In this document: positions 11,020 to 64,000 of the stretch, piece after piece | How the letters are laid out: the number at the start of each line of letters is the position of its first letter | Numbering within the stretch: the stretch's first letter is position 1 | Source: Somniosus microcephalus | Lineage: Eukaryota | NCBI GenBank assembly: GCA_052327205.1 | Contig: CM126202.1 | Coordinates: 376,464,001-376,528,000, forward strand | Direction of reading: 5' to 3' | DNA length: 64,000 bases | Program-made: the position numbers and the translations under genes | The notes under the pieces: generated by a model | Told to the model about the DNA's origin: nothing | The model's input: only the letters and a program-made list of their open reading frames with translations | The model's database searches: none

Positions 11020-14000
11020 TGTGATAAATCCATGTAGGGAAACAAGGAACTCGAAGAGGCGAGATATTAGAATTAGTCCGTGTACTTTATTAAACAGCTG
11101 CGTAACAAACATACAGGCCTGCATCCTCTCATTCCACCTCCGCTGACCTTAACCAGTAGCAGCACTAGCTACAGCACCACCTGGTGGATAACCTTAATCA
11201 TAACATCCCAGATTACTATATTCCTCCCCCCTTAGGATTTCAGTATGAATTTCTTAACAAACAACCATTCCTAAGGGTCACATAAGAAGTCTCCATTCAC
11301 TATGTTCAATACTTGATGAATCTAACAGGTCAGTACTAATCTCTCTGGTGGCTTGCGAGGCCTTTGTGAACGTCTAACAGTAAAGTCCCTGCTTGTTTGT
11401 GGTGAAGCCACCAGCTGCTCCTGAACAGTGCACAGAGTATCTGACTCGGCAACGATGGTTCCCTCTTGACGAATGGGTTCCTGTGGAATTGTCTCTGTCC
11501 ATGGTGGTGGCACCACAGATGCACTTGGATAACTGGGGGCAAACCTGTCCTCAGCCATTGCATCTGGAACCTCAATTTCAATTTCCTCTTGTCTGGTAAG
11601 TATCTGATCTACATGTCTGCGTACTACCCTACCATCTCCCAACATGATCTTGTATGATACTGGACCTGTCATTGAGTCTATGAAGCCAGGAATCCACTTT
11701 GGTCCATAAATGAAATTCCTGGTAAGGACCGCATCTCCTTCTCCAAAACTTCGGCTCTTTGTTCTTTTGTCATGGTTCTCTTTTTGTTTGTTTTGTCTGT
11801 TTTCCATTTTCCTTTTTAGGCCTGGGTGGACAAGGTCAAGAGTGGAGTGTAGTCTATGATCTAATAACATCTCAGCAGGAGAGACTCCTGTGGTGGATTG
11901 AGGTGTTATTCTGTAGCTGAACAGAACCCGTGACACTTTGGCTGCTAAACTCCCTTCTGCACTTTTTATTCATCATCTCTTTAAATGTTTGTACGGCTCT
12001 CTCCGCAAGTCCATTTGAGGACGGATGATATGGAGCCGAGGCCACCTGCACTATGCCATTGTTTCTCATGAACTCTTTTGTCTCTGTACTCACAAAACAA
12101 GTGGCATTGTCACTTACCACGATCTCCGGTAGCCCTTGATTACTGAAGCTCTGACGCAGGCAGTCTATAGTAGTAGTGGAGGAAGCAGAATTAACAGGAT
12201 AAACATCCATCCATTTGGAATGTGCATCAGTGATTATGAGGAACATCTTCCCCATGAATAGACCCGTATAATCTAAGTGCAATCTTCTCCATGGTTTATC
12301 CGGCCACTCCCAGGGGTGGAGAGGAGCCGCTGCTGGTGCCTTCCTGTGTACCTGACAAGTGCTGCATGTCTTGACTAGATTTTCTATCTCCTCATCTAGC
12401 TTTGGCCACCACAAGTAACTCCTAGCCAAAGCTTTCATACGCAACACCCCAGGATGACACTGATGTAGTTGTTGTAGGATAGACTGTGGTGCTGGCTGTG
12501 GAATAATCACTCGTGCTCCCCACAGCGCGCAACCATCCTGCACACTCAGCTCTGTTTTCCTGACACTGTAGGGTGTGAAGTCAGTCCCTTCCGGATGCTG
12601 TGGCCATCCCCTCACCACATATTCTCGAACTCTAGACGGTACTGGATCTTTACCTGTCCATGTTCTTACTTGCTCTGCAGTCACAAGTGCTGTGTCAGTG
12701 TCCTCCAACATCAAAACTCTGTCCTCTGGAGCTGCACGGATAGGTGTGCCTGGCAGTGGAAGACGGCTCAAGGCATTTGCGTTCCCATGGTCCTTGCCCG
12801 CCTTGTAGACAATGACATACTCATATGCCCTCAATGTCACTGCCCACCTCTGGATCCGGGGTGACACCATCTGTGGAACTGCTTTCATTTCATTGAAAAG
12901 AGAGAGAAGAGGTTTATGATTGGTGCATATGGTGAACTTCCTGCCATATATATACTTGTGTAACCTCTGTAACCCAAACATTACTGCTAACCCCTCTTTG
13001 TCTAACTGGGAATAGTTTTTTTCTGCTGGTGTTAGGGTTCAGGACATAAACCCTATTGGTCTTTCTGTTCCACCTTTCATGCAATGTGAAAGAACTGCCC
13101 CCATCCCGTAAGGTGAAGCATCACAAGAGAGAATGATGTCTTCCTCTTCATTGTAGTGAACCAGCACATCCGATGACAGCATCAGTTTCTTGGACTGTTC
13201 AAATGAAACCCTCTGCTCCTCTCCCCACTGCCACTGTGTCTCCTTGTGCAGTAGTTTGTGAAGAGATGCTAACACTGTTGACAGGTTTGGTAAAAACCTG
13301 TTACAATAGTTCAGCAGTCCCAGTTAAGCTTTTAACTCAGCCACATTGGTAGGAGCAGGGGCGTCCTGCAGTGCTTGTACCTTCTCCTTGATTGGATGGA
13401 GCCTGGTGGCATCCACTCTGTGTCCCAGGAACACTGCCTCATTCCCAAGAAAGTGCACTTACTCCTCTTGAGCCGGAACCCTGCCCTCTCCAATCTCTGT
13501 AGTACCTCTCTCAGAGTGCTCAGATGCTCCTGGTTGGTTCTTCCCGTCACCAGAATGTCATCCAGATAGATGGAAACATGTGGAATCCCTTGCAGTACAC
13601 CTTCGATTGTCCTCTGGAAGATAGCTGGACTAGATGAGACACCAAACGGTAAGCGGTTATATGTAAACAAGCCCTTGTGTGTATTTATGGTAACATACTT
13701 CTTTGATTCATCATCCAGTGTAATCTGCAAGTATGCATGACTCATATCCAACTTTGTGAATTTCTTTCCTCCAGCCAGGTTTGCAAAGAGATCCTGTGTT
13801 TTGGAAATAGGATACTGCTCTAGTTTGGACACCCGATTGACTGTCAATTTATAATCTACACAGAGTCTTCCTGAATTGTCCGGTTTTAAAACAGGTACTA
13901 TGGGAGCTGCCCATTCTGAACATTTCACTGGCTCCAGTATGTTCTCTCTCAATAGATGGTCAAGCTCACCCTCTACCTTTGGTTTCATGGCCTAAGGCAC

Positions 14001-15658
14001 AGGTCGTTGTTTAAAAAACCTTGGCGGTGCCTCCTTTTCTACATAAATCTTAGCTGGGGGGCCATTAAATGTGCCAAGTTCCTCCTTGAACACATTCTCA
14101 TGTTCACTCAACACTTCTTGCAAAGTCAACTGTTTGCCCTCATCTATTTGATTTACTGCTCCCCAGTCTAATTTAAGTTCTTTTATCCAGCCCCGACCTA
14201 ACAGGTTTGGTCCGGTACCCGATACTGTAACTACAGGTAGCTGTTCCACTGTGTCCCTGTGTTGCACAGTTACATTAGCTGCACGTAATGTCACTACTCG
14301 TTCAGCTGTATATGTTTTAAGATGCAGAGAGCAAGACATTAACTCTGGAACTTTTGCACGGTTCCACAATTTTGAGTATTCTGCCCTGTTCATTATGGTT
14401 ACACCGCACCCTGTATCAACTTCAAAGTTGACCTCAGAGTCATTTACTGTCAGTTGCAAGGTGATAGGAGCCAATTTTGGAATGTTCTCTAACATGCTAT
14501 ACATTATGAACATGTCCTCTTCTTCCTCAGCTTCCCCGCTGATGTGGTGTGTGCCATGTTTTTTCACTTCTCTTCCTTGGTTTTGCTTTCCTCCCCCTTT
14601 TGGTTTGGATTCCTCCACAGGTGATTTTGCCCTGCATGCTCGTTTTATGTGTCCTTGTTTCCCACACTTGTGGCACTTTTCCTCCAGAAACCGGCATTCA
14701 CTTGCCAGGTGATCGTCCTTGCATCTATAACATGCCTTCACATGCTCACGTTGTGGTTTCTGATGCATGTTTAACTTGTGCACAATAACCTGACCTGCAA
14801 CTTGCTTAGCATTAGCCCTGTCTGAACGCTGTATTTCTTTTACATCTCGGTTCGCTGTCTCTATGGCTTGAGCAAGTTCCAATGCTTTTTCATAAGTAAG
14901 TCCAGTCTCGGAAAATAATCTACGCTGCATTCGGTCATCCATTATTCTGCAAACTAGCCTATCTCTCAGCATTTCCTTCAGGTTGTTCCCATAATTGCAA
15001 TCTTGTGCTAATTTACGCAACACCGCTACATAGTCCATTACACTCTCCTCCTCTTTTCTGTTCCTTGAATTAAACTTGAACCGCTGTACAATCTCACTAG
15101 GCTTAGGGTTAAAATGTTCTTTTAGCAAGGCCACTAATTCAACAATTGATTTGTCTCCAGGCTTTTCAGGACTGAGCAGATTCTTCATCAAACTGTAGGT
15201 TTGGCTTCCCACTGAACTAAGCAGAATGGCTTTCCTTTTTCTGGCATCATTTATTTCATTTGCTTCGAAGAAATAACCCAACACTTCACAGTATTCCTCC
15301 CAGGTTTGTGCTTGAATATCAAAAGCAGAGACCGTACCTATCGTGGCAGCCATGCTCTCGTCCAATTGGTAGCTAACTTTGGCTCGTGAGTTTGTTTTTT
15401 TAAAAGTCCCGGCAGACTTCTCTTCTTTATTCAGTGCCCTTTTACCTCATCGCCAAATGTGATAAATCCATGTAGGGAAACAAGGAACTCGAAGAGGCGA
15501 GATATTAGAATTAGTCCGTGTACTTTTTTAAACAACTGCGTAACAAACATACAGGTCTGCATCCTCTCATTCCACCTCCGCTGACATTAACCAGTAGCAT
15601 CACTAGCTACAGCACCACCTGGTGGATAACCTTAATCATAACATCCCAGATTACTATA
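11020..15658 (-). mobile_element. Gypsy LTR retrotransposon A (Mag/K02A2.6-like), full length, decayed
   Basis: 201-bp LTRs at 11020-11220 and 15458-15658 differ at about 5 positions. 5-bp TSD GGATG. PBS TGGCGATGAGG (15445-15455, tRNA-Ser(GCU)-like). PPT at 11221-11236. Confidence 0.95.
11322..15353 (-). pseudogene. gag-pol of Gypsy A (stops and frameshifts)
   Basis: Two zinc knuckles, protease VDTGC, RT YLDD, RNaseH CDASPYG, integrase HHCC and DDE (HLDY, SDNA, GLAER), split across at least 5 ORFs. Confidence 0.92.
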
Positions 15659-26169: not shown

Positions 26170-27092
26170 AAAGGTAGAAATAGCAGAGACATTGGTCACA
26201 ATCTTTCAATCCTCATTGGATACAGGTGTAGTGCCGGAGGACTGGAGGGTTGCTAATGCTATACCACTATTCAAGAAAAGGGAGAGGGATAAACCAGGAA
26301 ACTACAGTCCAGTCAGCCTAACATTGGTGGTGGGGAAGTTATTTTAAACCATTATCAGGGAAAAAATACACTTTCATTTGGAAAGGCATGGGTTAATCAC
26401 AGAGAGCCAGCTTCGATTTGTTAAAGGTAAATCATGTTTGACTAACTTGATTGAATTCTTTGATGAGGTAACACTGAAGGTTGATCAAGATAATGCAGTA
26501 AATGTAGTATATCTGGACTTTCAGAAGGCATTCAACAAACTGTCACACAGGAGGCTTATTAAGAAGATGGAAGCCCAAGGAATTGAGGTGAAAGTGGCGG
26601 TATTGATACAAAATTGCCTCAGTGACAGGAAGCAATGGGTGGTGGTGGATGGTAGTTTTTCAGACTGGGAGGTGGTTTGCAGTGATGTTCCCCAAGAGTC
26701 AGTTTTGGGTCCATTGCTCTTTGCAATTTTTCTAAACCACCTAGACTCAGGTGTAGGGAGCAGCATTATAAAGTTTGTGTTAAGTCTGTGTGTTCTAGTT
26801 GTAATTACTAACACAGACTACAAGATTAAAGTTCAACAGGTCTTTACTGGTTGGAGGTCAGGACTATACTAAATACAATATTACTACACAGTGCTTATAT
26901 ACCGGTGGTCACCACCGGTATTATGTATACAGCAGCCAGAGAAAGTAATACATCTCTTAAGGTGGAACAGGCTTAAGTTCTCTTAAGGTGGAACAGGTTA
27001 CATACACCACAATCCTCCCTTTTTAGCTTAACAGTCATATCCCCATTTAACATAACATAATAATAACATATATAACTTCAGGTATAAACAGT

Positions 27093-30000
27093 TCAAAGGT
27101 TCAGTCTCTCAGGAGGCCTTCTGATTCGGTTTGGATAACGCCTTTCAGTGGTCTCTGATTCCTGTTGCTGAGGTGACTCCTCTAGTTGGTCTCCCATGCA
27201 TTGGGTGTTATCATCATCAGGTACATTCCCTGCCGAGGTAGATGCTTCAGGTTCATTAACGTCTTCCACAGTTGTCTCTGTCGCAACCATGGGTTCGACC
27301 CTTGCTCTCGATTCTACCAGTTGATCTGCATGACGCCTTATCACATTGTTACCAATATCTACTGTGTACATCAGAGGTCCTTGTCTGGCCCGAATTGTTC
27401 CGGACTGCCATTTTTCGTTTCCATAGCCCCTTGCCAACACTGGTTGTCCTACGTCGAAACTTCGAGTGGTCTTGTTATTAATATGCCGAAACTGTTTGTT
27501 TTCCACTTCCCTCCGCACATTTGGTTTTAACAAGTCCAACCTGGACCGCAACCTCCTGTTGTAAATCATCATGGCAGGACTTTGGTTAGACACTGCATGA
27601 GCGGCGTTTCGATATGCCATTAGGAAATTGTCCACCTTGTGCTGTAGCGGAATCTGATCATCGTTCATGGCCTTTATTGCCTTTTTGAATGTTTGGACAA
27701 ATCTCTCGGCCAACCCGTTTGTCGCCGGATGATATGGGGCAGAGGTATAATGTTTCACCCCATTCTTCTTTAAGAACTTTTGGAATTCTTCCGACATGAA
27801 CTGTGGTCCATTGTCCGAACAGATCTGTTCTGGCAATCCGTTCCTTGCGAATACTGTTCTTAACACCGCAATTGTCTTTTCTGAAGTAGTGGTATTCATC
27901 TTGATCACTTCTGGCCATTTGGAATGTGCGTCCACCGCAATTAGGAACATGGAGTCCATGAATGGACCAGCAAAGTCAATATGTACGCGTTGCCATGGGG
28001 CTGAAGGCCATTCCCATGGGTGTAGTGGTGCGATCGGAGGTGCATTTTGCACTTTTTGGCACCCAGCGCAGCTTTTCGTCAACTCCTCTATCTGTTGGTC
28101 AATACCCGGCCACCATACATAAGCCCTAGCAAGACTTTTCATCTTAACTCCCCCCAGATGACCTTCATGCAGTTCTTTTAGAACTCTTTCCCTTAACTTG
28201 GGAGGAATAATCACTCTTGTCCCGTACATCAAAGTACCATGGCAGACGGACAGCTGGTCTCGCCTTGCCGAGAATGCCCGTAACAGAGGATCACCACATG
28301 TTGGCCATCATTTCACTGTCACCTCGTAGACTCTGGACAGTGTCGGGTCGTTCCTGGTTTCTCTTTCAATACTTGCATTGGTGACTGGTAAACACTTGAT
28401 GATGGTCGAATGAAATAACTCAACAGGGTCAACTTTCGTCGTTTCTTCTCCTTCAGGTAGTGGCAGGCGCGACAGCCCATCAGCATTGCCATGCTGCTTC
28501 GTACCTTTGAATTCTATTTGATATTGATGTGCCCCTAGGAAAAGGGACCATCTCTGGAGACGCTGTGCTGTCATCACTGAAACACCCTTCTTAGGGTTAA
28601 AAATGGATACCAATGGCTGATGGTCTGTCAGAAGTGTGAATTTTTGGCCCTGCAGGTAATGATTAAACTTCTTCACTCCCCATACAAGGCTGAGAGCCTC
28701 CCTATCGATCTGCGCATAGTTGCGCTCAGCAGAGGTCAATGATCTGGATGCAAACGCGACTGGCCTTTCCATGCCATTTGGCAACTTGTGGAGAGTACTG
28801 CCCCAATACCATATGGAGAAGCATCACAAGCCAACCGAATAGGCAGTGTCGGGTTGAAGTGAGCCAACACTTCCTCTGAGGTGATCAATTCTTTGCTTTT
28901 GCGAAATGCCTTCTTACAGTTTTCGCTCCATTCCCATGGTACCCCCTTCTGTAAAAGAGCGTTCAGCGGGTGCAGTACCGTGGATAGATTTGGTAGAAAT
29001 TTATGGTAATAGTTAATCAATCCTAGAAATGACCTCAACTGAGAGACATTATCCGGAGTGGGAGCCTTTACAACTGCCTCTATCTTGTCAGGAGACTTAT
29101 GAAGCCCCTCCCAGTCAATGACATGACCACAGTACAAGATCCACTTCTGGAAGAACTCACATTTCTGCTGATTAACTCTAAGTCCATACTCTTTCAGTCT
29201 GTTGAGCACCAGTTCCAAGTTTGCGAGGTGTTCTTCATCACCATCACCTGTAATCAGAATATCGTCCAGGTAACATTGTGTGCATGGAATTCCCTGTAAT
29301 ACCTGCTCCATGGCCCTCTGTCAAATTGCTGGAGCCGATGCCACTCCAAAAACCAGCCTATTGTACCAGTACAAACCTTGATGCGTGTTGATCGTGAGGT
29401 ATTGGCGTGACTCTTCTTCAACCTCCATCTGCAAGTACGCCTGCGCCATGTCTATCTTGGTGAAGTGTTTCCCGCCAGACAACGAAGCAAAAACATCCTC
29501 AATCCGCGGAAGCGGATACTGCACCGTGTTGTAAGGGTTTCGCAAAATTCCCCTGAAAACAAGAGAAACATTGGTCCACATCGTGGATGAAGATTTATGT
29601 GTTTTTGAATTGCCTCTGGGTCAGATCAATGTTTTGAAGCATGTTCAGAGCCATGAAAGACTGCTGGACTAGACTACAACAGAGTCAAGGAAATTTGGGG
29701 AAGTATTCACACACATTGAGAAGGAACATCTTTTAAGGCTTGTGCTTTGGAGCCCGGTCAAACACAGAGGTTTACAGCTTGTAATGTGTTTGTGTGAAAG
29801 ACCTGTCAATCAAACCAGGGAGGTCAGGAGTTGCCTACCTGACCCGAGGTTGATTATGGCTGGCTATGATTCAACAGCCAATCACAGTCCTTTTTTGTGT
29901 ACTGGTCAGACGGAGCGGCACCAGAATGAAAGACCTGTCAATCAAACCAGGGAGGTCAGGAGTTATCTACTTGACCCGAGGTCGATTATGGCTGGCTATG

Positions 30001-32042
30001 TTTAAACAAGCAATTCAGCAGCCAATCACAGTCCTTTTGTTTGTGTACTGGAACTTTAGGCGGGAATTTTTCCAGACAGAGCGGCAGCAGCAACAAGTAT
30101 AAAAGATAGCTACTGAGAAGCTATCAGGCCTCTTCTCTTTTTACTTCGCTGGATCAGGTGAGCAGAGTGTTTTGACTCCTAAACAAGACAACCTAGCAAG
30201 GACTTTGGGGTGGTGATTTAAGGGAATTGCTAAGATTGTTTAAATAACATTGTAGCCATTGTATCCCTCGCTTTTGCCGTGTGTACCCCCTTGATATATA
30301 CTTTTGTTGCATTTACTATGTTCGTGTGGTATAGTTTATATTTGATTATGGTTCTTTAGTTTAATAAATTTTGACTTTGCTCATATCCAAACAAATTGTC
30401 CGCTTTAACATCATTAATTGTAAGTCCCCCAGTCAGAACTGAAAGGTGGGGTAGCGATTCGGAACCACTGTTAAATTGGTTTACAGTGCAGCAGGCAAAA
30501 GGGCTGCTGGCCAGATATGTTACCATAAACCAGGTAATAGATGCCCCCCCCTACAGTGTGAAGCACCGGATTAACGGTGATTTTGAAATCTCCACAGATG
30601 CGAACCTTCCCTGGTTCTCCTGGCTTGTTGCTCGAAGGATGTTTCATAACGGGAACAATGGGCGTAGCCCACTCACTCCAATCTACCTTAGACAGTACAC
30701 CTGAACGTTCTAGCGCTTCCAGTTCTGCTTCTACAGTAGGTCGTATTGCATAGGGTACCGGTCTGGCTTTAAAAAATTTTGGGTGTGCTTGTTCATCAAT
30801 CTTGATGTTTGCCGTAATTCCTCTCAGTGTTCCCAGTCCCTGCTGGAACACCTCTTTAGCGTCATCCAATATTTTGGACAATCGTTTAGGTTTGACATCT
30901 GTTTCCCCGGAATCTACCGTTAGTGCCTTCAAGGAGTGCCAGTCCATATTCATTTTCCTAATCCACTCCCGTCCCAGTAGTGGTGGACCTCCTTCAGGTA
31001 GCACATATAAGTCCATTACTTGGCTTTCTTCGCCCTTGTGGACCACTTTTACCTCTATCTTTCCGATGGGGTACACACTTTGCCCCGTGTATGTTTTCAA
31101 TATAATCTCCGTATCCCGTAGGGGAATATGTTGGAATAACCTTTTGTAATCTTTCTTATTCATGACCGTCAATGCCGATCCAGTGTCCAATTCCATCTTT
31201 ACTTGGACTCCTGCTATCTGAAGGGTGACCCAAATTGTCTGGAGATCTGCATCCTTACCAACGTTGTGTACTCTTAAGCTACCCAGTTCATTACTGCTAG
31301 CGTCTGAATCTGGCTTCTGTTCGGTCGAACTGTTCTTTGTCACCTTGTGTACCTTTATGTATTTTCCTTGCGGTGACTTTTTGTTGCTGGTCTTCTTTCC
31401 TGACCGGCATACTTTAGCTATGTGGCCAAGCCTGCCACACGTTCTGCACTCTTGGTTTTTAAACCAACACTGGTTCTGATCGTGCGTTGTCTTTCCACAA
31501 CGATAACATTTTACAGTACTCAAACCCAATTTATTTGTACTGAGTTCCGGTGACCTAAGCTGCATTACTGCCGTGCCTCTCGCTGCGGCTTCGTGCGCTG
31601 CTGCCATAGTGACTGCTTTCTCAAGCGTCAGCTCATTCTCCTCGAGCAGTCGCTTTTGTGTATCTTCTTTTAATAGTCTCGTTCCAAACTGACAGTACTT
31701 TGCTAGCTTACGCAATTCCATTAAATATTCAGCATTGCTTTCATCCTTCAGCTGCCTTCTGCTGTAAAATTTAAATCGTTCCGCTAGCATCAGCGGCGTG
31801 GGGTTTAGATGATTTTTCAGGACAGTAACAATCTCCTCGAACGTCTTATCCGCCGGTTCATCTGGTGATAAAAGGTGTTTCAATTGCCCGTATGTCTTCG
31901 CACCCATTAAGTTTAATAATGTTAGTGCTTTCTCTTCATCTGGGATTTTATTTGCTTTACAATAATTTTGTATGCGTTCTACATACATGGCCCAATCTTC
32001 GATGTCGCTATCAAAGGTATTAATGTTCCCATGTTTAGGCAT
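27093..32042 (-). pseudogene. gag-pol of Gypsy B
   Basis: Gag knuckles, LDTGS, YLDD, CDASPYG and integrase DDE ending RRPPERLNL. It carries stops, a frameshift, a 12-aa gag deletion and a solo-LTR insertion in RT. Confidence 0.92.
29530..30555 (+). mobile_element. Solo LTR (1026 bp) inserted in the RT of Gypsy B
   Basis: TGTAAG...CCCTACA termini and TSD GTGT. It has a 132-bp-period internal duplication, CCAAT boxes, TATAAAA near 30098 and AATAAA at 30363. Confidence 0.9.
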
Positions 32043-32757
32043 CGTTGCAATTTAATTTATTTTTATTTTTATCCAAGATGGCGGCTTCCCGCTCTTGTCT
32101 TCATCCTCCGCCTACAAAATGGCGGTTTTCCCGCGCTTGGCGGTCTTCACCCATCCCCCGACGCTGTCTCCGCTTCACCGCGGCTCTCGCGCCTTCAGTT
32201 GCCCCAGACGCTGCGCCTTTTTAGCCCGAATGCGGCCCGGCCCTTATCACCAGCCGCGATCGATGTCCCCGCGCTCCGCCTTTCGGCCCGAATGCGGCCC
32301 GGCCCTTATCTCCGGTCGCGATCGATCTCACCGCCCTTATTCCTCCGTCTTCCCTCCCCGTCTGTACAGCCAACGCGGCCGACTTTCTGGTCGCGTCGCT
32401 GCCCGGCTTACCCACCACCGAGGTAGAATGAAGATAGCTGACAGCCGCTGATGGAGGCTTCGAGTTCAGGATGTCTTCTGCACTCTGGTTTCTCGATGTC
32501 TGCCGCGCGACGTGTCTTCCAGCAGGGTGATGAGGGTGGAAGCCTCTCTTCGACGTCCGTTCTGTGGACGAAGCCATCGTGGATATAAACTGCCGCAGGG
32601 TAAGAATCGGACTCGTCGCCACTGTTTAGTCTGTGTGTTCTAGTTGTAATTACTAACACAGACTACAAGATTAAAGTTCAACAGGTCTTTACTGGTTGGA
32701 GGTCAGGACTATACTAAATACAATATTACTACACAGTGCTTATATACCTGTGGTCAC

Positions 32758-35700
32758 TGTTAAGTCTGTGAATTATTTAGTTAATTAAGACACAGACTAA
32801 TGAGTAACAATAAAAACAGGTCTTTACTGGTTGGAGGTAGGGACTATACTGAATACAAGATTACTGCACAGTGCTTATATACCGGTGTGTTCACCCCCGG
32901 TATTACGTCTACAGCAGCCTGAGAAAGTAGTACATCTCTTAAGGTGGAACAGGCTTAAGCTCTCTTAAGGTGGAACAGGTTACATACACAACACTCCTCC
33001 CTTCTTAGCTTTATAGTCATCCCCCCATTTAACATAACGTAATAACATATATACATATATAACTTCATGTTTAACGTAACATATCACAGATTCAGTCTCT
33101 GCGGAAAACAGCTCACAGATTCAATGTCTGTGGTGTAGTCGGTTCACGTTACTCATTCAATAGTCCTTTCATGGATTTAACAGCTTGAACTTCCGAACTG
33201 ATTTGGCTCCGTTCGGAGGGACCACGTGTGTGATCTGCTAGAGGTGATAATGGTTCAGATGGGTCATCTTCTGTTTTTACTTTTCCTTTTCTGCTTCTTG
33301 GAGACTCTCTGGGCTCCATTGTCAGCTGCCACAGCTGCCAGCTGCATGCGCAGTTCCTCCTTCTCTTCCTCCTGTTTCCGTCGTAGAGCCAGCTTCTCCC
33401 GATGTTCCGTAGACTTTTGGTGCTCCTCCATGATTTCTGCACTTTGGGAGTCGAAGTTACAAGCTGGGCAGGACAGGACATCGTAATATTCGGTGTCGTC
33501 CACCAGGTCATGGTAATATTCGGTGTCGTCCTGAGCTAGACCAGTGAGAGGGTCGTCTATTTCCTCCATACCCAGCTGGACGTTAGCCAGCTCTTGTTCC
33601 AAATCCAGACATCTTTCCTGAAGAGACTTCTTCATGTGTACCTCTGCATCCAGCTTTTTCTGGGCTTTCAGCAAGTCGTTTACTAGTGACCTCATTTGTG
33701 ATTTTAATACTTCAACTTCCTTTGGAGATTGATTGATCGGACTATGCAATCCCTCTACCGGAGCAGCCGTTTCAGCGGTCTGTTGTTCTACATTGACGTG
33801 AGTCAGCGTACTTTTGGCATCCAATGGCTGCTCTGTTGCAGTCGTTTCAGTCTGTGTCGTCACATCAGCCATCTCAATGACTTTTGAGAGCTCCAAACCC
33901 TTTTCCTTTGAAGATCGCAGCTCGTGTTCAAGTTTTTCCCATTTCAGAGTCTTGTCCCTCAGCATATGAAGGAGTTGGCTGACCGTTAACTCTTCTGACA
34001 CCAGATTATGGCACGTACCTTCAGAACCTGAATCAGCTTTGATTCGTTCGGCCTCCTCGCGCAGATGGTTGGTGTGCCCCTGCTCCATTTTCTCCATCAG
34101 TTGCTTCTGTTGCCTTTCCAGATTCTCCCACTCTGTAACAAAGAACTTTTTTATTTCATTCATCTCTTGCTCAAAACGGCGAATCATTTGTTCTAATTGC
34201 TGTTGTAGTTTGAAATGGAGTTGAGTTCGAGCCCAGTGTCCCTCAAAAATGTGCATATCAGTAGACTTGACAGACTCGGAATTCTCTGTTAAACTATGTT
34301 GTTGTTGCTCAGTGGAATTCTGTGCTGAAACTTTGTCTTTTGCACATGGGTTGGTCTTACCATCATCAGTTCTAGAGTCTGGGCTGATTATCTGCACCGA
34401 GTTCTCACTCTTTATGGCTTTTAGCGAATGCCAGTCCATATTTATGTTTCTAAACCACTCCCGGCCTAGTAGTGGTGGACCTCCCTCCGGTAGCACATAT
34501 AAGTCCATTATTTGACTTCCTTCGCCCTTGTTGGCCACTGCAACCTTTATTGTCCCGATGGGGTACACTCTCTGCCCCGTGTAGGTTGTCAATATAATCT
34601 CCGTATCCTGTAGGGGAATATGTTGGAATAACCTTCTGTAATCTTTCTTATTCATGACCGACAATGCCGATCCAGTGTCCAATTCCATTTTTACTTGGAC
34701 TCCTTCTATCTGAAGAGTAACCCAAATTGTCTGGAGGTCTGCACCCTTACCAACGTTGAGTACCCTTAAGCTAGCCAGTTCAATACTGCTTAAGCCAGCC
34801 AGTTCATTACTGCTAGCATCTGAATCAGACTCCTGTTCGGCCACCTTGTGTACCTTTGCGTATTTCCCTTGCGGTGACTTCTTGTTGCTGGTCTTCTTCC
34901 CTGACCTGCATACTCTAGCTATATGTCCAAGCCTACCACATGTTCTGCATTCTTGGTTTTTAAACCAACACTGGTTCTGATCATGCGTTGTCTTTCCACA
35001 ACGATAACATTTAACAGAACTCACACCCAATTTGTGTGCACTGAGCTCCGGTGACCGTAGCTGCATTACTGCCGTGCCTCTCGCTGCGGCTTCGTGTGCT
35101 GCTGCCATAGTGACCGCCTTCTCAAGCGTCAGCTCATTCTCCTCGAGCAGTCGCTTTTGTGTATCTTGTTTAAATAAACCACACACAAATTTGTCTCGTA
35201 GTGCATCTGTCAGTCCCGTTCCAAACTGACAATATTTCGCTAATTTACGCAATTCCAGCAAATATTCAGCATTGCTTTCATTCTGTAGTTGCCTTCTGTC
35301 ATAAAATTTAAATCGTTCCGCTAGCATCAGCGGCGTGGGGTTTAGATGATCTTTCAGGACAGTAACAATCTCATCGAACGTCTTATCCGCCGGTTCATCT
35401 GGTGATAACAGGTGTTTCAATTGCCCGTATGTCTTCGCACCCATTAAATTTAATAATGTTAGTGCTTTATCTTGCTCACGAATTTTATTGGCCTTACAAT
35501 AATTTTTTACTCGTTCTACATATATGGCCCAATCCTCGATGTCACTATCAAAGGTGCCAATATTCCCGTGTTTAGGCATTGTTACAATTTTGTTGGAATT
35601 TTATGTTACACAAGATGGCGGCTTCCCGCTCTTTGTCGTCGTCCTCCGCTCCCAAGATGGCGGTTTTCCCGCGTTTGGCGGTCTTCACCCGTCCCCCGAC

Positions 35701-36305
35701 GCTGTCTGTAAGCCCGAGTGCGGCCCTTATCTTTTATGCGATCGCTGATCGCGAAGCGGCTCCCGACCGAAGCGGCTCTTGGCCCTTATCTGGAGTGCGA
35801 TCGCTGGCTTGAAACGCCACCCGCTCGAAGCGGCTCTCGCGCCCTTATCGCAGATGCGATCGATTTGAAAGCGGCCCGGCCCTTATCTGCCGATCGCTAT
35901 CGCCCTGTACCTCTGTCTTCCCCAGCCCTGTCTTCTACTCCGGTTCACAAGCTGATGGAGGCTTCAGGGTCCTAATGCCTGTCGCTTCCAGTGGGGTGGT
36001 GAGGTTTGAAACCTCTCTTCAACCGCCGTGGAATAACTGCCGCAGGGTAAGAACCTGACTCGTCGCCAGTGTTAAGTCTGTGAATTATTTAGTTAATTAA
36101 GACACAGACTAATGAGTAACAATAAAAACAGGTCTTTACTGGTTGGAGGTAGGGACTATACTGAATACAAGATTACTGCACAGTGCTTATATACCGGTGT
36201 GTTCACCCCCGGTATTACGTCTACAGCAGCCTGAGAAAGTAGTACATCTCTTAAGGTGGAACAGGCTTAAGCTCTCTTAAGGTGGAACAGGTTACATACA
36301 CAACA
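32758..36305 (-). mobile_element. Non-autonomous Gypsy-derived element C carrying a chimeric ORF
   Basis: Identical 236-bp LTRs (32758-32993, 36070-36305), TSD GTCAC, PBS TGGCGACGAG (36059-36068), PPT at 32994-33006. No RT, RNaseH or integrase core. Confidence 0.95.
33264..35579 (-). CDS. 771-aa Gag-protease fused to STK10/SLK-like, optineurin-like and DNAJC21-like segments
   Basis: Uninterrupted ORF. Residues 1-388 are collinear with Gypsy B Gag-PR. Residues 446-515 resemble the STK10/SLK PKK coiled coil, 529-673 the OPTN coiled coil, and 694-771 the DNAJC21 zinc finger plus its basic patch. Recognised from memory. Confidence 0.85.
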
Positions 36306-38420
36306 GTCACCACCGGTATTACATATACAGCAGCCAGAGAAAGTAGTACATCTCTTAAGGTGGAACAGGCTTAAGTTCTCTTAAGGTGGAACAGGTTACA
36401 TACACCACAGTTTGTAGATGAGACAAAACTTGGCAAAGTAGTAGATAGTGATGAGGATCGTTATAGGCTTTAGGATAACAGACAGGATGGTGAAATGGGC
36501 AGAAGTATGGCAGATGGAGTTCAATGCAGAGAAGTGTGAAGTGATGCACTTTGGGAGGACTAATATGGAAAGACAGTAAGACAGTATACTATAAATGGCA
36601 CAATTTTGAAAAGTGTAGATGAGCAGAGAGACCTTGGTGTCCTGATACACAAATCCGTAAAGGTGGCAGGGCAAGTTGATAAGGTGGTTAAAAAAGCATA
36701 TGGGTTACTTGGCTTTATAAATAGAGGAATAGAACTTTATAGATCACTGGTTAGGCCTCGGCTGGAGTATTGTGAAAACTCTGTGCACAACAGTCAGGAA
36801 AGATGTAAAGGCCTTAGAAAGGGTACAGAGCAGATTTATCAGGATGTTACCAGGGATGAGGGACTTCAGTTATGAAGAGAGGTTGAAAAAGTTAGGACTC
36901 TTCTCCTTGGAACAGAAAAGGTTAAGAGGTGACCTCATAGATGTTACCAAGATGATGAGAGGTTTTATAGAGTAAATAGAGAAAAGCTATTCCCTCTGGC
37001 GAGTGGTCCAATAACCAGAATTCATAGATTCAAAATCATTGGCAAAAGATCTAGAGGGGAGATGAGGAGAATTTTTTTCACTCCCAGTTGTCGGGATCTG
37101 GAACACTCTACCTGAAATGGTGGTGGAAGCTGATTCCATAAATAATTTTAAAAGGGAGCTGGACAGGTACTTGAGGATGAGGAACTTCCAGGGTTATGGA
37201 CAAAAAGCGGGAATAAGCACAACTGCTCTTTCAAAGAGCCAGCACAGGCACGATGGGTCGAATGGCCTCCTTCTGTGCTGTAAGTTTCTATGATTCTATA
37301 TGGACTGTTCAAATCAGCGAGAGTTGGTCTGGTACATTGGAAAAGATTAGTTCGACCAGTTAACTTCTGTAGTTGTTAAGGTCATAAGAAAAAAACAACT
37401 ATGTATACAGGAAAGTTATTTACAAAATTATAGTTTAGCATAAAGCAAATTTGTTTGGCTTTTACAAGGTCTGTTGTTAGTGTTGTTCTACCACGTTTCA
37501 AGGTTAGAACCCTGTGGAGGTACAGGCTAGATCCAATAGCTAAAGGCAAGTTTTCTGCTTGTTATTCTGGGCATGCTAGCAAAACTTACCTGGAAACCAC
37601 AGCAAATGAAATAGTCTCAAAGTTGTAGGGGAGTAAGACTCATTATAAGAGCAGTTTAAAATATGGAAGGCAAAATATCTAGACCAAAAAAGGCAGCGAG
37701 GCACAAAAATATAACAGCTGCTGGCCCAGGGAAACTACAATTTCCTTGGAAATGCAAAGGGTTAAATAACAAACTGCAAATGCACTGAAATAAATTGATG
37801 CAAATAAACAAGACAAATTTATGGTATATAAATAGTAATTCAAGTCTAAAGATTGATTGGGGTTTGTTGCTGTTGAGAGATCAGTAATGAAGCATAATGC
37901 ACATCCTGAGATGTCAACCACGACAGACCAGACATTCAATTTTCAAACGTCCTTAAAGAGAAACAAGGCCTGATTTTGCTCTCTAGCTGCAATCTTGGCC
38001 AAGTTCAGTAGAAGTGCACTCTGCTGGGACCAAGGCCACACCAACCGAACTTCCTCTTGGCCTGAATTAAAGTAATGCAGCTGCATGTGGGGATGCTCTA
38101 TTGGGTACAGGCAAGAAAGGAAGACAAATTGAGGCTGCTTTTTGTTAATTCAAAATGGGATGCAGTCGCGTATCTTGAAGGAGAGGGACGATTTTCCCCC
38201 TCTGGTAGGGAAACAGTGGTGAGATGCTCAGGAGAGATGCAGGCACATTTCCCCAGCAGTTGTCAAGGGAGCTTGTGGTATTTTTCCCTCGTATGTTCCA
38301 AATAAGCCGTATCACAAAAGGGGATGGGAAAAGTTGGAACAATACTGAACACTGCCTCTATTGCGAAGTGTAAGAGGCAGAGAGCATTCAGCATCAAGTC
38401 CTGAAGCAGCAAAACTATAT

Positions 38421-48890: not shown

Positions 48891-51800
48891 TGTGGTGATT
48901 ATTCTTTATGTTTAGTAAGAAGTATTGTGATTGGTTGTTTGTTTCCTGCCTTGGGATATATGTTGTAATCTCATTGGTAGTTGATGTCATGTGATTTGTG
49001 GTGGCCATCTTAAATTCAGTTCTTTCCAGCCTTTTGTTGGGACTGGGTGTTGAAGATGTGCTACAGGATTTTTAAGTTAATAAAGCCTAGATTAGAAAGG
49101 CAAATCTATTCTTTATTTCAATTTATTAACTTTATGTCAGAATGGAGCGATATCTTCAACCAGAACGATTCAATGCTGACCCTAATTCTGCAGGAGTGGA
49201 TGATAAATGGAAACACTAGTATTGTACATTTAAAAACTTTTTGGGCGTGTTGGATCAAGAGTCTCTAAATAAGCTGAATATGCTGATCAACTACATTGCT
49301 CCGGATGTGTATAAGTATATTTTGGACTGTAAAACTTACGAAGTGGCTATTTCTACATTGGAAAAGATTTTTGTTAAACCAAAGAATGAGGTATTTGCAC
49401 GTCACCTTCTATCTGCCCGTAGGCAGCAGGTGGGAGAATCTTTGGATACTTATTTACAAGCACTTCGGTGCCTTAGTGTTAACTGTAATTATAAGGCCAT
49501 GACGGCTGAAGAATATAAGGAAGAATCGGCACGGGATGCTTTTATTAATGGATTACTGTCTAGATCAATTAGTCAGCGGTTGTTAGAAAATAAGACTTTG
49601 GATCTTAAGAGTGCTTTTGAGCAAGCTTCTACATTGGATGTGGCTCAGAGAAGTTCGGATTCTTATGCTCTTTTTAATCGGCCTGTGACTGTGGTTTCGG
49701 CAGTTCCGGATGAAAAGGAATTATGTGGACTTAATAGGAGTGGTTTACTAGATTCTGAAACAGTTTCTACTTCAGCGGCTGTTGCCTCTAGGATTCAGAA
49801 GTGTTATTTTTGTGGGAACGTCCGGCACCCTCGTCTGAAGTGTCCTGCTCGGGAGGCTGTGTGTAGTAAATGCGGCAAGAGAGGTCATTACGCACGTGTG
49901 TGTAAATCATCAGGTTCAATTACCTCCTCTGTGACTATTCAGCCTTTAGATAGGGCGTTTATTGCATCAATTTCTGCTGCATTTGCTCATGGCCTAAACA
50001 AAGCTATAGTTACGGCCCAAGTTAATGGGTTGGAAGTGAAGGCCCTTATAGATACGGGCAGTACCGAGAGTTTTATAAGTCTTCAGTTTGCAAAGGAGAA
50101 GCATTTGAAAATTTTGCCTGTTTCCTATCAGGTGTGTATGGCTCAGACGACTCTCACTTCACAAGTAGCTGGTTGTTGCCTTGTGAAATTGATTCTTCTA
50201 GGTAATACGTATACTGATATATGCCTATCTGTTTTGCCTAATCTCTGTGCGGATATTTTGATTGGTCATGATGTGCTTCAGTTACACGAGTCTCTCAATC
50301 TTTCATTTGGAGGGACTAAGCCACCTTTATCTATTTGTGGATTAACCTCTTTATCCATTTCTCCATTATCACTTTTTTCCAATTTGATGCCAGATTGTAA
50401 GCCAATTGCTACCAAGTCAAGAAGGTATAGCAGTCAGGATAGAGAATTTATTAATTCTGAAGTTCAACGTCTCTTATTGGAAGGAATCATTGAACCTAGT
50501 TGTTCGCCTTGGCGGGCACAGGTAGTTGTCACGACTAACGAGAGACATAAGAAACGAATGGTGATAGACTATTCCCAAACTATTAATAGGTATACTCAAT
50601 TAGATGCGTACCCTTTGCCTAAGATTGATGAGCTTATCAATAAAGTATCTCAGTATAAGGTTTTTAGCACTATTGACCTAAAGAGTGCTTATCATCAGAT
50701 TCCTATTGTTAAGAAGGATCAACCATATACGGCCTTTGAGGCTGGTGGAAAGCTGTATCAGTTTTGCCGAATACCATTTGGTGTTACTAATGGTGTTGCT
50801 TGTTTTCAATGGGCAATGGATGCTTTTATAAGTGATAACTCTCTCTCTGACACCTTTTCATACTTAGATGACATCACGGTGTGTGGCAAATCAAGGGTGG
50901 AGCATGATTCTAATTTAGAAAGATTCCTTGAAGCTGCTGAAAAAGTTAGTTTAACTTTCAATAAAGAGAAGTGTACCTTTTCGACCACTGAGGTAAATCT
51001 ACTGGGGTATATTATCTCGGGAAACAAGATTAAACCAGACCCAGAATGTCTGCGACCATTGATTGATTTACCCTGTCCTACTAATTCTAAGGCTTTGCAA
51101 CGAGTTGTTGGACTGTTTTCTTACTATTCTAATTGGATTGCAATTTTTTCACAGAAGATCTGGCCTCTTATTCGGGTTACGACATATCCTCTATCATGGG
51201 AGGCCAGGACGTGTTTTGATAATTTTAAAAAGGATATCCTTGGAGCAGTTGTGCATTCTATTGATGAGCAGGTTCCTTTTGTGATTGAGACGGACGCTTC
51301 TGATTTTGCAATTGGGGCTACTCTGAACCAAAATGGAAGACCTGTGGCTTTTTTCTCACGTACCTTGAACAATAGTGAAAAAAGGCATTCTTCAATAGAG
51401 AAAGAGGCGTATGCAATAGTAGAAGCACTGCGTAAATGGAGACATAATTTATCTGGGTGACATTTTACGTTGGTAACTGATCAAAAGTCTGTGTCCTTTA
51501 TGTTTGATGTCAAACATTTTGGAAAGATTAAGAATGATAAAATAATGAGGTGGAGGATTGAGTTGGCATGTTACCATTTTGATATAGTTTATCGTCCGGG
51601 GAAGGATAATGTTGCTGCTGATGCGCTGTCGAGGGCTTATTGTTCTGTGATTCACGGAGATACGCTTATTAATCTTCACAATGCCTTATGCCATCCTGGG
51701 GTTACGAGGATGATACACTTCGTACGCAGTAAGAATTTGCCCTTTTCAGTTGAAGACGTCAAGCGGATGACTTCATCATGTTCTATCTGTGCTCAGTGTA

Positions 51801-53297
51801 AACCGAATTTCTTTAAGCCTCAATGAGCTCATCTTATAAAGGCTGCTTCTCCTTTTGAACATTTGAGCGTCGATTTTAAGGGGTCTCTTCCTTCAACTAC
51901 TCAAAACCGATATATATTTACTGTTGTGGATGAGTTTTCAAGGTTCCCTTTTGCTTTTCCTTGCGCAGATGTATCAGCTGCTACAGTTATCAAATGTCTG
52001 ACTCAACTTTTTGTCATCTTTGGGATGCCTGCGTATATCCATTCGGATCAGGGAAGTTCTTTTATGTCTTCCCAGTTGAAGGAATACCTTCAGAGTTGGG
52101 GAATTTCTACTAGCAGAACTACCCCGTATAATCCCCAGGGTAATGGACAGTGCGAACGATACAATGGGGTGATCTGGAAGGCAGTTATGTTGGCTTTGAC
52201 ATCCCGGAACCTTAAGAATACACAGTGGGAAATGGTACTGCCTGATGCCCTGCATTCCATTAGATCATTGCTTTCAACGGCTACTAATGTGACCCCCCAT
52301 GAAAGGCTCTTTAACTATCCGCAGAGATCTACTACGGGATATTCGGTACCTTCATGGCTTACTATGCAGGGACCTGTGCTGCTTCGACGCCATGTTAGAT
52401 TGTCAAAATATGATCCATTAGTGGAGGAGGTGGAGCTGTTGGAGGCAAATTCCCAATATGCTCATATTCGATTCCAAGATGGGAAAGAAAGTACCGTTTC
52501 AATTAAAGACTTGGCTCCTTGTGGTGGCCAGCCCTCTTCTGAGGATATTAACAATAGTCATGATTCAGGTAATGTGGATGCTGTTACAGATACTACGAAT
52601 ATTTCCAATCCGACTGCAGATAATTATACTTCTATTAGTCAGCCCTCGATAGATGTTCATGACCGTCCCAGTTTACCTCCTGATGGGATTTCTAATCCGG
52701 AAACCGTTGAAAATCGGGATATGGATAGCCTTCCGGCAGAAGATACTTCTGTGTCTCCTGGTGTGGGAGGGCAAGGAATTTCACCAAGGTTAAGAAGGTC
52801 GACACGAACAAGATATCCGGTCGACCGATTGAAAATGGACTTTTAAATTGATAGTAATGTTTTAAAATTGTTGAAATATTATATTATATTGTTTTAGTTG
52901 AGAGATATTTAATACTTATGTGCAATGTTACTATTTGTTGTTGCTCACTTAGTATTGTGTCATGTTGAATAGTTTTATTTTGTCTGTGCATAGTTTTAGT
53001 TGTAAATAATTAATTATAAATTGTAAAGGTTATTTAGGTTGGAGTATATTTTAAAAGGAGGGGTGAATGTGGTGATTATTCTTTATGTTTAGTAAGAAGT
53101 ATTGTGATTGGTTGTTTGTTTCCTGCCTTGGGATATATGTTGTAATCTCATTGGTAGTTGATGTCATGTGATTTGTGGTGGCCATCTTAAATTCAGTTCT
53201 TTCCAGCCTTTAGTTGGGACTGAGTGTTGAAGATGTGCTACAGGATTTTTAAGTTAATAAAGCCTGGATTAGAAAGGCAAATCTATTCTTTATTTCA
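48891..53297 (+). mobile_element. Gypsy LTR retrotransposon D, full length, mildly decayed
   Basis: 230-bp LTRs (48891-49120, 53068-53297) with 3 differences. PPT AAAAGGAGGGGTGAA. The TSD is imperfect (CCATT/ATATT) and there is no clear tRNA PBS. Confidence 0.92.
49142..52846 (+). pseudogene. Single-frame gag-pol of Gypsy D with three in-frame stops
   Basis: MERYLQPERF..., zinc knuckles, IDTGS, YLDD, TDASD, HHCC and DDE. Stops at about 49216, 51458 and 51824, all in one frame. Confidence 0.92.
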
Positions 53298-53380
53298 ATA
53301 TTCTAAGCATGAATACATAGTTAAATTATGGCCATATTTCCCTCTATTAGCAAAAAAAAGTTTAATTCACTTAACATCTA

Positions 53381-54779
53381 GGCCTAGAAATTGAGTTGAC
53401 GCCGCGCCAGGGCTTTAGCGCCGGAAATTTAGCGCCGGCGCTAATTCCCTTGCGCGCGCCAAAAATTCAGTAGCGCCGCGCCCAGACGGCTGCCGGCGCT
53501 ACTGGCGGGCGTGAGCGCCTCCCAATGGGCGCTGAGTGCCGTATTGCGGCGCTAATCCGGCGCTGCGGCACCCGATGCGGTGCGGCAGGCTGGGGAAGTG
53601 CAGGCCTCCTCCTTCAGTTAAGGAGGAGCTGCCTGCACCCGCCCGCTGTCCGTTCAAATATTGAAAAAATGAGCCCGGCACCACGGACAAGTGCCGGGCT
53701 TGCAGGCCAGACGCATCTGTTCCACGGGGGGGGGGGTGGAGGAGTCCGGGGAGGGAGGTGCGGGCAGGCAGCCGACGGGAAAGCGGCCGGCCGCAGCGCG
53801 ACCTTAATGCGCCGGCGCAAACTCGGGGAAGACTCTGTTGCCAGAGTCTTAGGCCTAGAAATTGAGTGCCCTTAGCGCCGATTTTGCGGCGCTAGAGGGC
53901 CTAGCGCTGCATTTGGCGCCGGCGCCGAAATTGCCTGGGGCCCTTACGCCGCGGTAGACCGGTAGCGCTGCGCCGGCACCGATGACGTCATCGGTGTGCG
54001 CAGCGTCCCGGTTGCCATGACGACGGGCCCCAGCGCCGAAATTCAGTTGCGGCCGCCTCGCCCGTGGCAGCCGCAACTAAGACTCTGGCAACAGAGTCTT
54101 CCCCGAGTTTGCGCCGGCGCATTAAGGTCGCGCTGCGGCCGGCCGCTTTCCTGTCGGCTGCCTGCCCGCACCTCCCTCCCCGGACTCCTCCACCCCCCCC
54201 CCCCCGCGGAACAGATGCGTCTGGCCTGCAAGCCCGGCACTTGTCCGAGGTGCCGGGCTCATTTTTTCAATATTTGAACGGACAGCGGGCGGGTGCAGGC
54301 AGCTCCTCCTTAACTGAAGGAGGAGGCCTGCACTTCCCCAGCCTGCCGCACCGCATCGGGTGCCGCAGCGCCGGATTAGCGCCGCAATACGGCACTCAGC
54401 GCCCATTGGGAGGCGCTCACGCCCGCCAGTAGCGCCGGCAGCCGTCTGGGCGCGGCGCTACTGAATTTTTGGCGCGCGCAAGGGAATTAGCGCCGGCGCT
54501 AAATTTCCGGCGCTAAAGCCCTGGCGCGGCGTCAACTCAATTTCTAGGCCTTAGTTGCGGCTGCCACGGGCGAGGCGGCCGCAACTGAATTTCGGCGCTG
54601 GGGCCCGTCGTCATGGCAACCGGGACGCTGCGCACACCGATGACGTCATCGGTGCCGGCGCAGCGCTACCGGTCTACCGCGGCGTAAGGGCCCCAGGCAA
54701 TTTCGGCGCCGGCGCCAAATGCAGCGCTAGGCCCTCTAGCGCCGCAAAATCGGCGCTAAGGGCACTCAATTTCTAGGCC
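53381..54779 (+). mobile_element. Harbinger-type MITE, outer copy (53381-53851 plus 54554-54779)
   Basis: Perfect TIR GGCCTAGAAATTGAGT and TSD CTA. Confidence 0.93.
53852..54550 (-). mobile_element. Same MITE, inner inverted copy (699 bp)
   Basis: Perfect TIR and TSD TTA (53849-53851 / 54551-54553). It contains the intact version of the site it interrupts. Confidence 0.93.
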
Positions 54780-55004
54780 CTAGAATTTAACAAAGCCAAA
54801 TCAAAATGGCAGGTACCCATGACTTTGCGCAGATCATTTTCTGCAATACAATTTTGGTGGTGGGAATGGAAGCAAATGGCCTATCATGACACGTCAATAT
54901 TAATGCTTATTTCATATGTATCAAGCAGCTAAATTGCTACATAGCCAGCATAAATGGTCAATATTTCATTCATCCAGTTGTCAAAATGGGAAAACTTTTG
55001 AAAA

Positions 55005-59065: not shown

Positions 59066-59916
59066 CAAGCTCAGTCTGCTCCTTGCAATCAGAGGAGCAG
59101 GTTGTGTGGCTGAGCTGCTCCTGCTGCTACTGTGGGGAGAGAGTGTGTGGTCCAAAACAACCCATCGACAGAGGTGCCTGGAGAGGAAGGAGTGGAGGAC
59201 AGAGGAGGAGGCCAGCATTAGAACAGGAGAGGCCTCTTTTCCAGCACTGCCTCCCAATTCGGCCTCCAGCCCAGGAGAGGGAGAGAGGGAGAGAGGATAC
59301 CAACAGCTCCACTTGGAAGGAGGGGAGGAGCTGCAACTCCAACATCTGCAGGTGGGTGTCTCTGTGTATTCCCCTAAAGACTTTTTGCATTCTAGGCGGG
59401 GGGAGGAAAAGAAGACGGGCCGAAAGCCTGGCCTGGGTTGGCTGGAGCCTGCCCAGGTGAAGCTGCTTCCCTCATCAAAAAGACCTGGTGTGGGCTGAAC
59501 CTGGGCTGTCTCCAGTCTGCCCAGGCGAAGACATCTTCTCCCCCTGCCCGAAGACCACCAGAAAAGACTTTGCTTTGACCATCGGGGGAGTACACCCTGC
59601 CGACACCCACCCACCGCCTATCATCGTCGAGTGGGGACCCTGCCTTTGCGGCCCCCCCCGCTCCTTCCCACCCCCCTCTCTCTCTCTCTTTGTCCTCTCT
59701 CTGCCTCTCCGATAGGCACCTCCCTTATTAATTTCCCAATTGAGCAGAGGGAAGAAAGGGCCCCCTCCCAATTCATACCATCAAGGGGAGAGGTGGCCCA
59801 GTACATTTACGCTCCCTCTGCTCAGGAAAGACCTTGTTACACCGAGGCCATTTTTAACACCTTCGGGCCTGTGACTTTTGGGGTGTGTGTAGCTCTTTTT
59901 TAAAATCCACCCCACG

Positions 59917-62075: not shown

Positions 62076-62105
62076 GTTTAAGTAGGGGTTGGTTGTGCTT
62101 CTGAA

Positions 62106-63998: not shown

Positions 63999-64000
63999 CT

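Follow-up and report, generated by a model that had tools for sequence, protein, structure and literature searches.

Transducing retroviruses carry gag-onc fusions, in which host coding sequence is usually gained at the cost of pol. Crocodilian endogenous retroviruses (ERVs) are another case of host coding sequence within a retroelement, having captured a KIT-ligand or nectin3 (PMC4299795). The domains found in retroviruses of these kinds are more or less whole and functional. LTR-mediated retroposition places a spliced retrocopy internally, between the discontinuous halves of an element (Tan et al. 2016, PMC5131818). In the cases taken from that paper both switches show microsimilarity, some retrocopies are chimeras of several genes, and copies have spread secondarily as non-autonomous elements; in the sections consulted they occupy few insertion sites and sharks are not covered, and the word 'circular' is absent from the main text. 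Maize Bs1 is a non-autonomous LTR element that joins pieces of three host genes in one chimeric frame. As far as the consulted sections of its descriptions go (PMC5131818, PMC13317346), it is present in 1-5 copies per genome and has linear mRNA donors, one of them out of frame.

Host sequence can also derive from circular RNA. In mouse, 33 high-confidence copies of circRFWD2 pseudogenes have been described with LTR-enriched flanks, and a legend marks MMERVK10C-int (Dong et al. 2016, PMC4897178). These copies have a non-colinear junction at the back-splice site, contain only circle-resident exons and lack poly(A), and an LTR route is hinted for them too. The main text calls the mechanism mysterious and describes no switch points, single full turn or in-frame gag fusion. 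The route by which a circRNA, with no poly(A) and no free ends, is reverse transcribed was left open (PMC4897178).

Here we describe a family of LTR retrotransposons in Somniosus microcephalus that carries spliced pieces of the host gene STK10. It was followed up from one copy in a 64,000-nucleotide stretch of the genome (the window). The family shares with circRFWD2 the three features above, and differs in having both switch points, what is best read as one exact turn, an open Gag-protease fusion, 1,120 junctions and serial captures. It resembles the retrocopies of Tan et al. in structure, with thousands of insertions instead of few. Compared with Bs1 it has four donors across its branches, the first apparently circular, and at least about 5,300 copies. 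Unlike the crocodilian ERVs it is an env-less gypsy element, and its cargo is fragmentary and mostly drifting. Searches of the open-access literature turned up neither an STK10-bearing family nor a circRNA captured by an LTR element in frame and for one turn, and the term 'circSTK10' was absent. LTR gene capture and circRNA-derived pseudogenes are both known; the clean one-turn capture, the in-frame fusion and the scale did not come up in these searches, and the clarity of the mechanism and the scale are the notable aspects.

The carrier element and its STK10 piece

The carrier is a young non-autonomous Ty3/gypsy LTR retrotransposon, presumably of the Mag-like clade. This inner element is inserted within the 5' LTR of a related outer element, which is itself surrounded by a LINE that we take to be CR1-like. 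The TG...CA LTRs of the inner element are flanked by a target duplication of 5 bp and enclose a primer-binding site and a polypurine tract; its relatives show the order PR-RT-RH-IN. A Pfam search found Gag and protease in its frame, with two CCHC knuckles in the Gag part, and RT, RNase H and integrase absent. The features, in window coordinates, are as follows.

26778..36409, minus strand: outer Ty3/gypsy element, gag-PR-RT-RH-IN, broken; LTRs 229/234 identical, target-site duplication GTTTG
36306..36310, second copy 32753-32757: target-site duplication GTCAC of the inner element, from the sequence
36070..36305, minus strand: 5' LTR of the inner element, 236 bp, TG...CA, 236/236 identical to the 3' LTR
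36059..36068, minus strand: primer-binding site adjoining the 5' LTR, from the sequence; presumably matching a tRNA-Ser 3' end
33264..35579, minus strand: 771-codon open frame with Gag, aspartic protease, STK10, optineurin and DNAJC21 pieces
34412..35579, minus strand: gag-protease part; Pfam zf-CCHC and gag-asp_proteas, both below curated cut-offs; omega about 0.3 against relatives
34234..34411, minus strand: STK10 exon B remnants (exon positions 191-269 and 335-436), separated by an in-frame deletion; 74/79 and 92/103 bases as in the host
34033..34244, minus strand: PKK coiled coil of STK10, made of exon D (38-124) joined by splicing to exon E (1-125); host DNA identity and PF12474
34158/34157, minus strand: exon D/exon E junction, from the alignment to host STK10
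33559..34041, minus strand: optineurin piece, several host exons spliced; 68% to shark optineurin, 87-94% to host exons
33280..33554, minus strand: DNAJC21-derived C2H2 zinc finger and acidic/basic tail, diverged; from its L090 homologue by window-to-L090 alignment, with limits taken from the survey of the first 30 D-E junction loci
33152..33272, minus strand: end of STK10 exon A spliced to start of exon B (86-93% identity to the host exons), corresponding to the other end of the captured circle; mostly past the stop and no longer in frame
32994..33005, minus strand: polypurine tract, from the sequence
32758..32993, minus strand: 3' LTR of the inner element, from the LTR comparison

The outer element represents the likely helper type of the inner one. 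Its RT is interrupted at 29530-30555 by a TG...CA insertion of about 1 kb with a 4-bp target duplication (GTGT), which looks like a solo LTR of a different family.

An earlier note, made from the sequence alone, had recognised a coiled-coil piece of the PKK region of STK10 or SLK, and this identification is borne out. Positions 34035-34244 of the minus strand translate into 70 residues without a stop, and these score 52.1 bits with Pfam PKK (PF12474; cut-off 25, E 9.5e-14). All 49 database matches to residues 400-771 of the frame were to optineurin or to kinase proteins of the STK10 type, shark sequences ranking first; the kinase proteins with a name were STK10, and identity over the PKK piece reached 77%. 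The genome's own STK10 is identical at 58 of the 70 residues, and its DNA at 83/87 bases of exon D and 104/119 of exon E. The similarity is far above chance and is not that of a generic coiled coil. Exons D and E are joined without the intervening intron of about 1 kb, so the piece came via RNA. A PDB sequence search with the cargo gave no matches.

The choice between the two candidate donors falls to STK10 and against SLK. The host STK10 gene lies at C8:167.17-167.28 Mb. Its kinase exons match a shark STK10 at 89-96% identity, and element DNA is 87-95% identical to exons of this gene. Two paralogues (C8:2.3 Mb and C30:27.4 Mb), compared in the kinase region only, are more distant. The absence of a kinase domain was rightly noted, since the frame has no kinase match and the captured unit begins at about residue 291. 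The claim that only about 70 amino acids were taken does not stand: the window copy has a second STK10 piece at 34234-34411 and two remnants at 33152-33272, and relatives show 415 codons. The capture itself also lends no support to the implied picking-out of an interaction domain, because it comprised what appears to be a whole five-exon circle and the 70 residues are the survivors of deletions and replacements. Elsewhere in the genome, an intronless 3' end of STK10 (L031, C3:354658186-354658961; residues 753-977, open, 98-100% to five host exons) stands beside a CR1-like LINE; it is an ordinary 5'-truncated processed pseudogene outside the LTR family.

A rotated set of five STK10 exons

The captured host exons, termed A to E, measure 135, 675, 131, 124 and 180 nt. 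Together they make 1,245 nt that are open in frame. Their host splice sites are canonical apart from one GC donor, that of exon C (C8:167193813-167193683). A 93-nt alternative exon downstream of exon E is outside the circle.

A PKK profile search of the 6.45-Gb assembly gave 150 scored candidates, all above the cut-off and most within long frames. Several of these have STK10 residues 385-704 followed by residues 290-388. In the three full-form copies aligned (L085, L086 and L087) the insert runs from exon B position 146 through C, D, E and A to exon B position 159, and agrees with the exons in this rotated order at 1244, 1243 and 1246 of 1259 positions, respectively. The captured sequence amounts to 415 codons (1,245 nt), in frame at both ends, and takes the place of RT-RNase H-integrase behind Gag-protease. 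The E-to-A join falls exactly at the exon E donor and the exon A acceptor in 7/7 copies inspected. A genome-wide count that allowed one mismatch at most gave 1,120 occurrences of this junction and none of the control. No match to STK10 exon 7 or to exons beyond E was found in the 10 elements compared.

The insert starts and ends within one and the same stretch of 14 bases of the host gene. This site shares 10 identical bases with pol just after the protease in the neighbouring autonomous-type element, and 7/8 with the integrase tail of that element. The 5' switch point is common to 7/7 and the 3' switch point to 6/6 of the copies displayed. In the window copy the back-splice join has been replaced by optineurin, yet exons A and B still follow exon E.

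The inserts thus have a non-colinear junction at true splice sites and only circle-resident exons, as in circRNA-derived pseudogenes. They also have lost introns, discontinuous element halves, microsimilarity at the switches and spread with shared switch points, as in LTR-mediated retrocopies. The structure of the capture, its junctions, frames and microhomologies are direct observations. Judged from this arrangement of the DNA, the best reading of the original insert is one full turn of a back-spliced STK10 circle, the putative circSTK10. RNA reads cannot easily tell such a circle from the element because element transcripts share the E-to-A junction.

A rotated order could also arise by chance, through two or more independent switches on a linear STK10 mRNA or through DNA rearrangement, and template switching is indeed frequent in this element family. 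However, the join coincides precisely with both splice sites, the only overlap being 2 bases (AG), and the lengths of the two pieces sum to exactly exons A-E plus about 14 bases; by our rough estimate the odds of this are about 1 in 10,000, and a chance origin is very improbable. A linear RNA with repeated exons A-E, produced by trans-splicing, exon repetition or a tandem duplication since lost, is a less remote source, although still an unlikely one. On such a template the enzyme would use one motif, present in consecutive copies of exon B, both to enter and to leave and would give the same product, and the shared motif alone could set the exact unit length. A common driver of back-splicing is also missing, as no inverted repeat was found between the two introns flanking A-E (BLAST E 1e-5, low-complexity filter on). 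Against the linear template, exons A-E each occur once in the 37-kb host region. Long flanking introns are typical of circle-forming exons, and the intron upstream of exon A, at 15.5 kb, fits this rule. RNAs with exon repetition are rare compared with back-spliced circles of internal exons.

We therefore return to the circle, and consider it likely that circSTK10 was captured by a Ty3/gypsy element through template switching and that the cargo was kept as open-frame filler. The packaging and switching steps proposed are those of known retroelement replication. A circular RNA formed by back-splicing of five internal STK10 exons (1,245 nt) would have been packaged together with the RNA of the element. 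While the minus strand was being made, the reverse transcriptase may have left the integrase tail and jumped to the circle at the short shared motif. The circle would then have been copied once round, with a switch back just past the protease at the same motif. Return to the entry point, already cut by RNase H, could have forced the exit after one turn; alternatively, the shared motif alone could have fixed the exit point. The product would make its own Gag-protease, borrow RT and integrase from autonomous relatives, and multiply. According to the abstract of a preprint, Gag alone packages host circRNAs in retroviruses (10.64898/2026.01.21.700838).

If so, the family preserves to the base an event of the kind left open for mouse. 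It also suggests a testable rule, that the insert has the length of the circle and is bounded by a duplicated microhomology, which may be applied to mouse circRFWD2 and to any genome.

Later captures, forms and copy number

Further switches would have removed the middle of the cargo and added obscurin-like pieces in one branch, and optineurin and then DNAJC21 in the branch of the window. The first 30 D-E junction loci on contig C1 all stand behind gag-protease. One is a full circle, 3 have an in-frame B-to-D deletion, 3 have an Ig-domain insert, 8 carry optineurin and DNAJC21, 1 has lost optineurin but kept DNAJC21, and the other 14 belong to the window's type, with a frame open along the whole length in 8 cases. 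A single frame spans every form (859, 734, 1055, 1018, 973 and 778 codons).

The optineurin capture consists of parts of six spliced exons and has displaced the back-splice join, with microhomologies of 9 nt on entry and 10/11 nt on exit. The host optineurin exons lie at C17:85.88-85.89 Mb. One of them (C17:85884655-85884793) is one base longer than the element copy, which shifts the frame of the joined exons; the extra base is probably a homopolymer assembly slip. The optineurin piece carries what we take to be an LC3-interacting motif, and an internal deletion has taken this motif out of the window copy.

The zinc-finger piece of L090 is DNAJC21 in 9/9 protein matches. Its Pfam E value is 7.7e-07 against 0.33 in the window, where the finger appears to have degenerated. 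Host DNAJC21 donor exons were not found: the PF21884 loci at C17:58.36 Mb gave no match, and at C1:2.65 Mb one upstream exon matches only, with nothing in the following 80 kb. The Ig insert has obscurin or obscurin-like proteins as its top matches, in searches whose length limits excluded full-length titin and obscurin, so that its donor is narrowed only to obscurin-like. The label 'titin' for this insert was rejected on these matches.

The D-E junction occurs 4,542 times in the genome by a pattern that recovered 51/59 test loci, and the STK10-to-optineurin junction 4,157 times. The optineurin and back-splice sets are mutually exclusive, which gives at least about 5,300 copies; a rough estimate of the family total at 5,000+ copies is about 20 Mb. 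The window's type made up 31 of the first 100 D-E matches listed. In the 15 fetched copies showing both LTRs, the pairs are 97-100% identical in 14 and 93% in one, and all forms have therefore moved recently. Two copies, L087 and L097, are inserted in tandem-repeat arrays (units of 35 nt and about 39 nt).

The full-circle copies are about 1% from the host and the pieces in the window 5-13%; across the family the descendants are 10-15% from the donor. The gag-protease of the window's type shows 101 differences in 347 codons from the neighbouring helper, and its dS (without transition correction) is 0.31 to this helper and 0.68 to L085. Being nearer to the neighbouring helper, the window's type has probably recombined with another helper lineage. 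A gag-fused relative was not found among 111 database proteins; annotation masks repeats, so other sharks may have it.

The long open frame and its transcription (below) could be taken for a domesticated host gene, or the whole arrangement for an assembly artefact. Both readings are countered by the identical LTRs of the window copy and by the dispersal of the element in thousands of copies that have LTRs and target-site duplications of their own. In addition, 58-73% of the element words are present in independent DNA runs that bear three organism labels. Either explanation is highly improbable.

Host-like copies still exist alongside diverged descendants, and the family thus offers a gene-capture series with its intermediates present. 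It may also be regarded as a fossil record of circRNA in cartilaginous fish. For practical work, the copies will cause errors when STK10, optineurin, DNAJC21 and obscurin are annotated in the Somniosus microcephalus genome and when their RNA is quantified.

Selection, expression and the role of the cargo

Omega was tested by permutation, with substitutions shuffled among positions of the same base; the pairs have a common history, so the tests are not independent. Purifying selection acts on the gag-protease, with omega 0.29-0.34 in 4/5 pairs (P <= 0.002) and 0.77 in the fifth. The whole cargo gave omega 0.56-1.25 in 5 pairs, only one of them significant (L089 against the window, 0.61, P 0.007). 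Optineurin cargo gave 0.61-0.97 in 5 copies, none significant, and STK10 cargo 0.92 in L090 and 0.82 in L098. The STK10 piece of the window has omega 0.44, with 17 synonymous changes where 9.7 would be expected (P 0.003, without correction for the roughly 30 tests made). A weaker synonymous excess is seen in the STK10 cargo of the least diverged copies, and may partly reflect change on the host side. Stops in the cargo number 0 against 4.1 expected (P 0.015) and 1 against 6.4 expected (P 0.012); the copies were picked in part by searches with a preference for open frames, which biases these counts. For the most part the cargo drifts, yet it avoids stops.

The cargo most likely acts as frame filler rather than as an STK10 domain. 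Its most likely role would be to let the frame run without a stop almost to the 3' end of the genomic RNA, for stability and avoidance of decay. Three observations count against pure filler: the omega of 0.44 for STK10 in the window's branch, the value of 0.61 for L089 against the window, and the frame of this branch, which ends about 270 bases short of the LTR with the last STK10 piece out of frame. On the whole, what the element requires is a Gag-protease of its own and an open frame; a role of the cargo protein is conceivable in that branch, though these values do not establish it.

The subfamily of the window is present in RNA. At 94% likeness on 33013-36067, run X7 has 10,709 reads and X8 has 8,391, covering 30/30 bins with the fusion-junction bins included; the runs are tied to the element-holding DNA run by species label only, and the reads sum the whole subfamily. 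The strand bias is about 12:1 toward sense in X7 and weak in X8.

Transcription also agrees with a different role for the cargo, that of a selected effector. The STK10, optineurin and DNAJC21 pieces would act as decoys or adaptors in autophagy, the cortex and the ribosome and so help replication, either once the protease has freed them from Gag or by display on the particle, by analogy with oncogenes in defective retroviruses. The PKK piece is retained in all derived forms sampled, with omega 0.40-0.44 in the window's branch; optineurin-bearing forms (4,157) outnumber back-splice-bearing ones (1,120), and 10/30 optineurin-junction loci have the LC3-interacting motif. However, the L090 and L098 branches have omega values of 0.8-0.9 in STK10 and of about 0.9 in optineurin, the large subfamily of the window is without the motif, and the zinc finger of the window copy has degenerated. 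The common retention of the PKK piece may be plain inheritance from one early deletion. We regard an effector role as doubtful and prefer the filler.

An extension of the effector idea is equally tentative. A circRNA would have founded a mobile-element lineage that serves as a platform for host-gene shuffling, and the Gag-fused cargo (the STK10 coiled coil, the LC3-binding region of optineurin, the DNAJC21 finger and the obscurin Ig domains) would have been selected as decoys against autophagy or restriction. If true, this would explain the dominance of the optineurin forms, and shark cells would make abundant dominant-interfering fragments of their own proteins.

The window contains several other insertions. 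Two further gypsy-type LTR elements lie at 11020-15658 and 48891-53306, with LTRs 97-98% identical and broken pol frames. The GC-rich segment at 59893-64000 has an ORF1-like frame of a non-LTR element, presumably Tx1/L1-like; the 514-codon frame at 60531 had no Pfam match. Nested long inverted repeats at 53380-54793 (357, 244 and 127 nt, 98-99% complementary) form a young palindromic MITE-like insertion.
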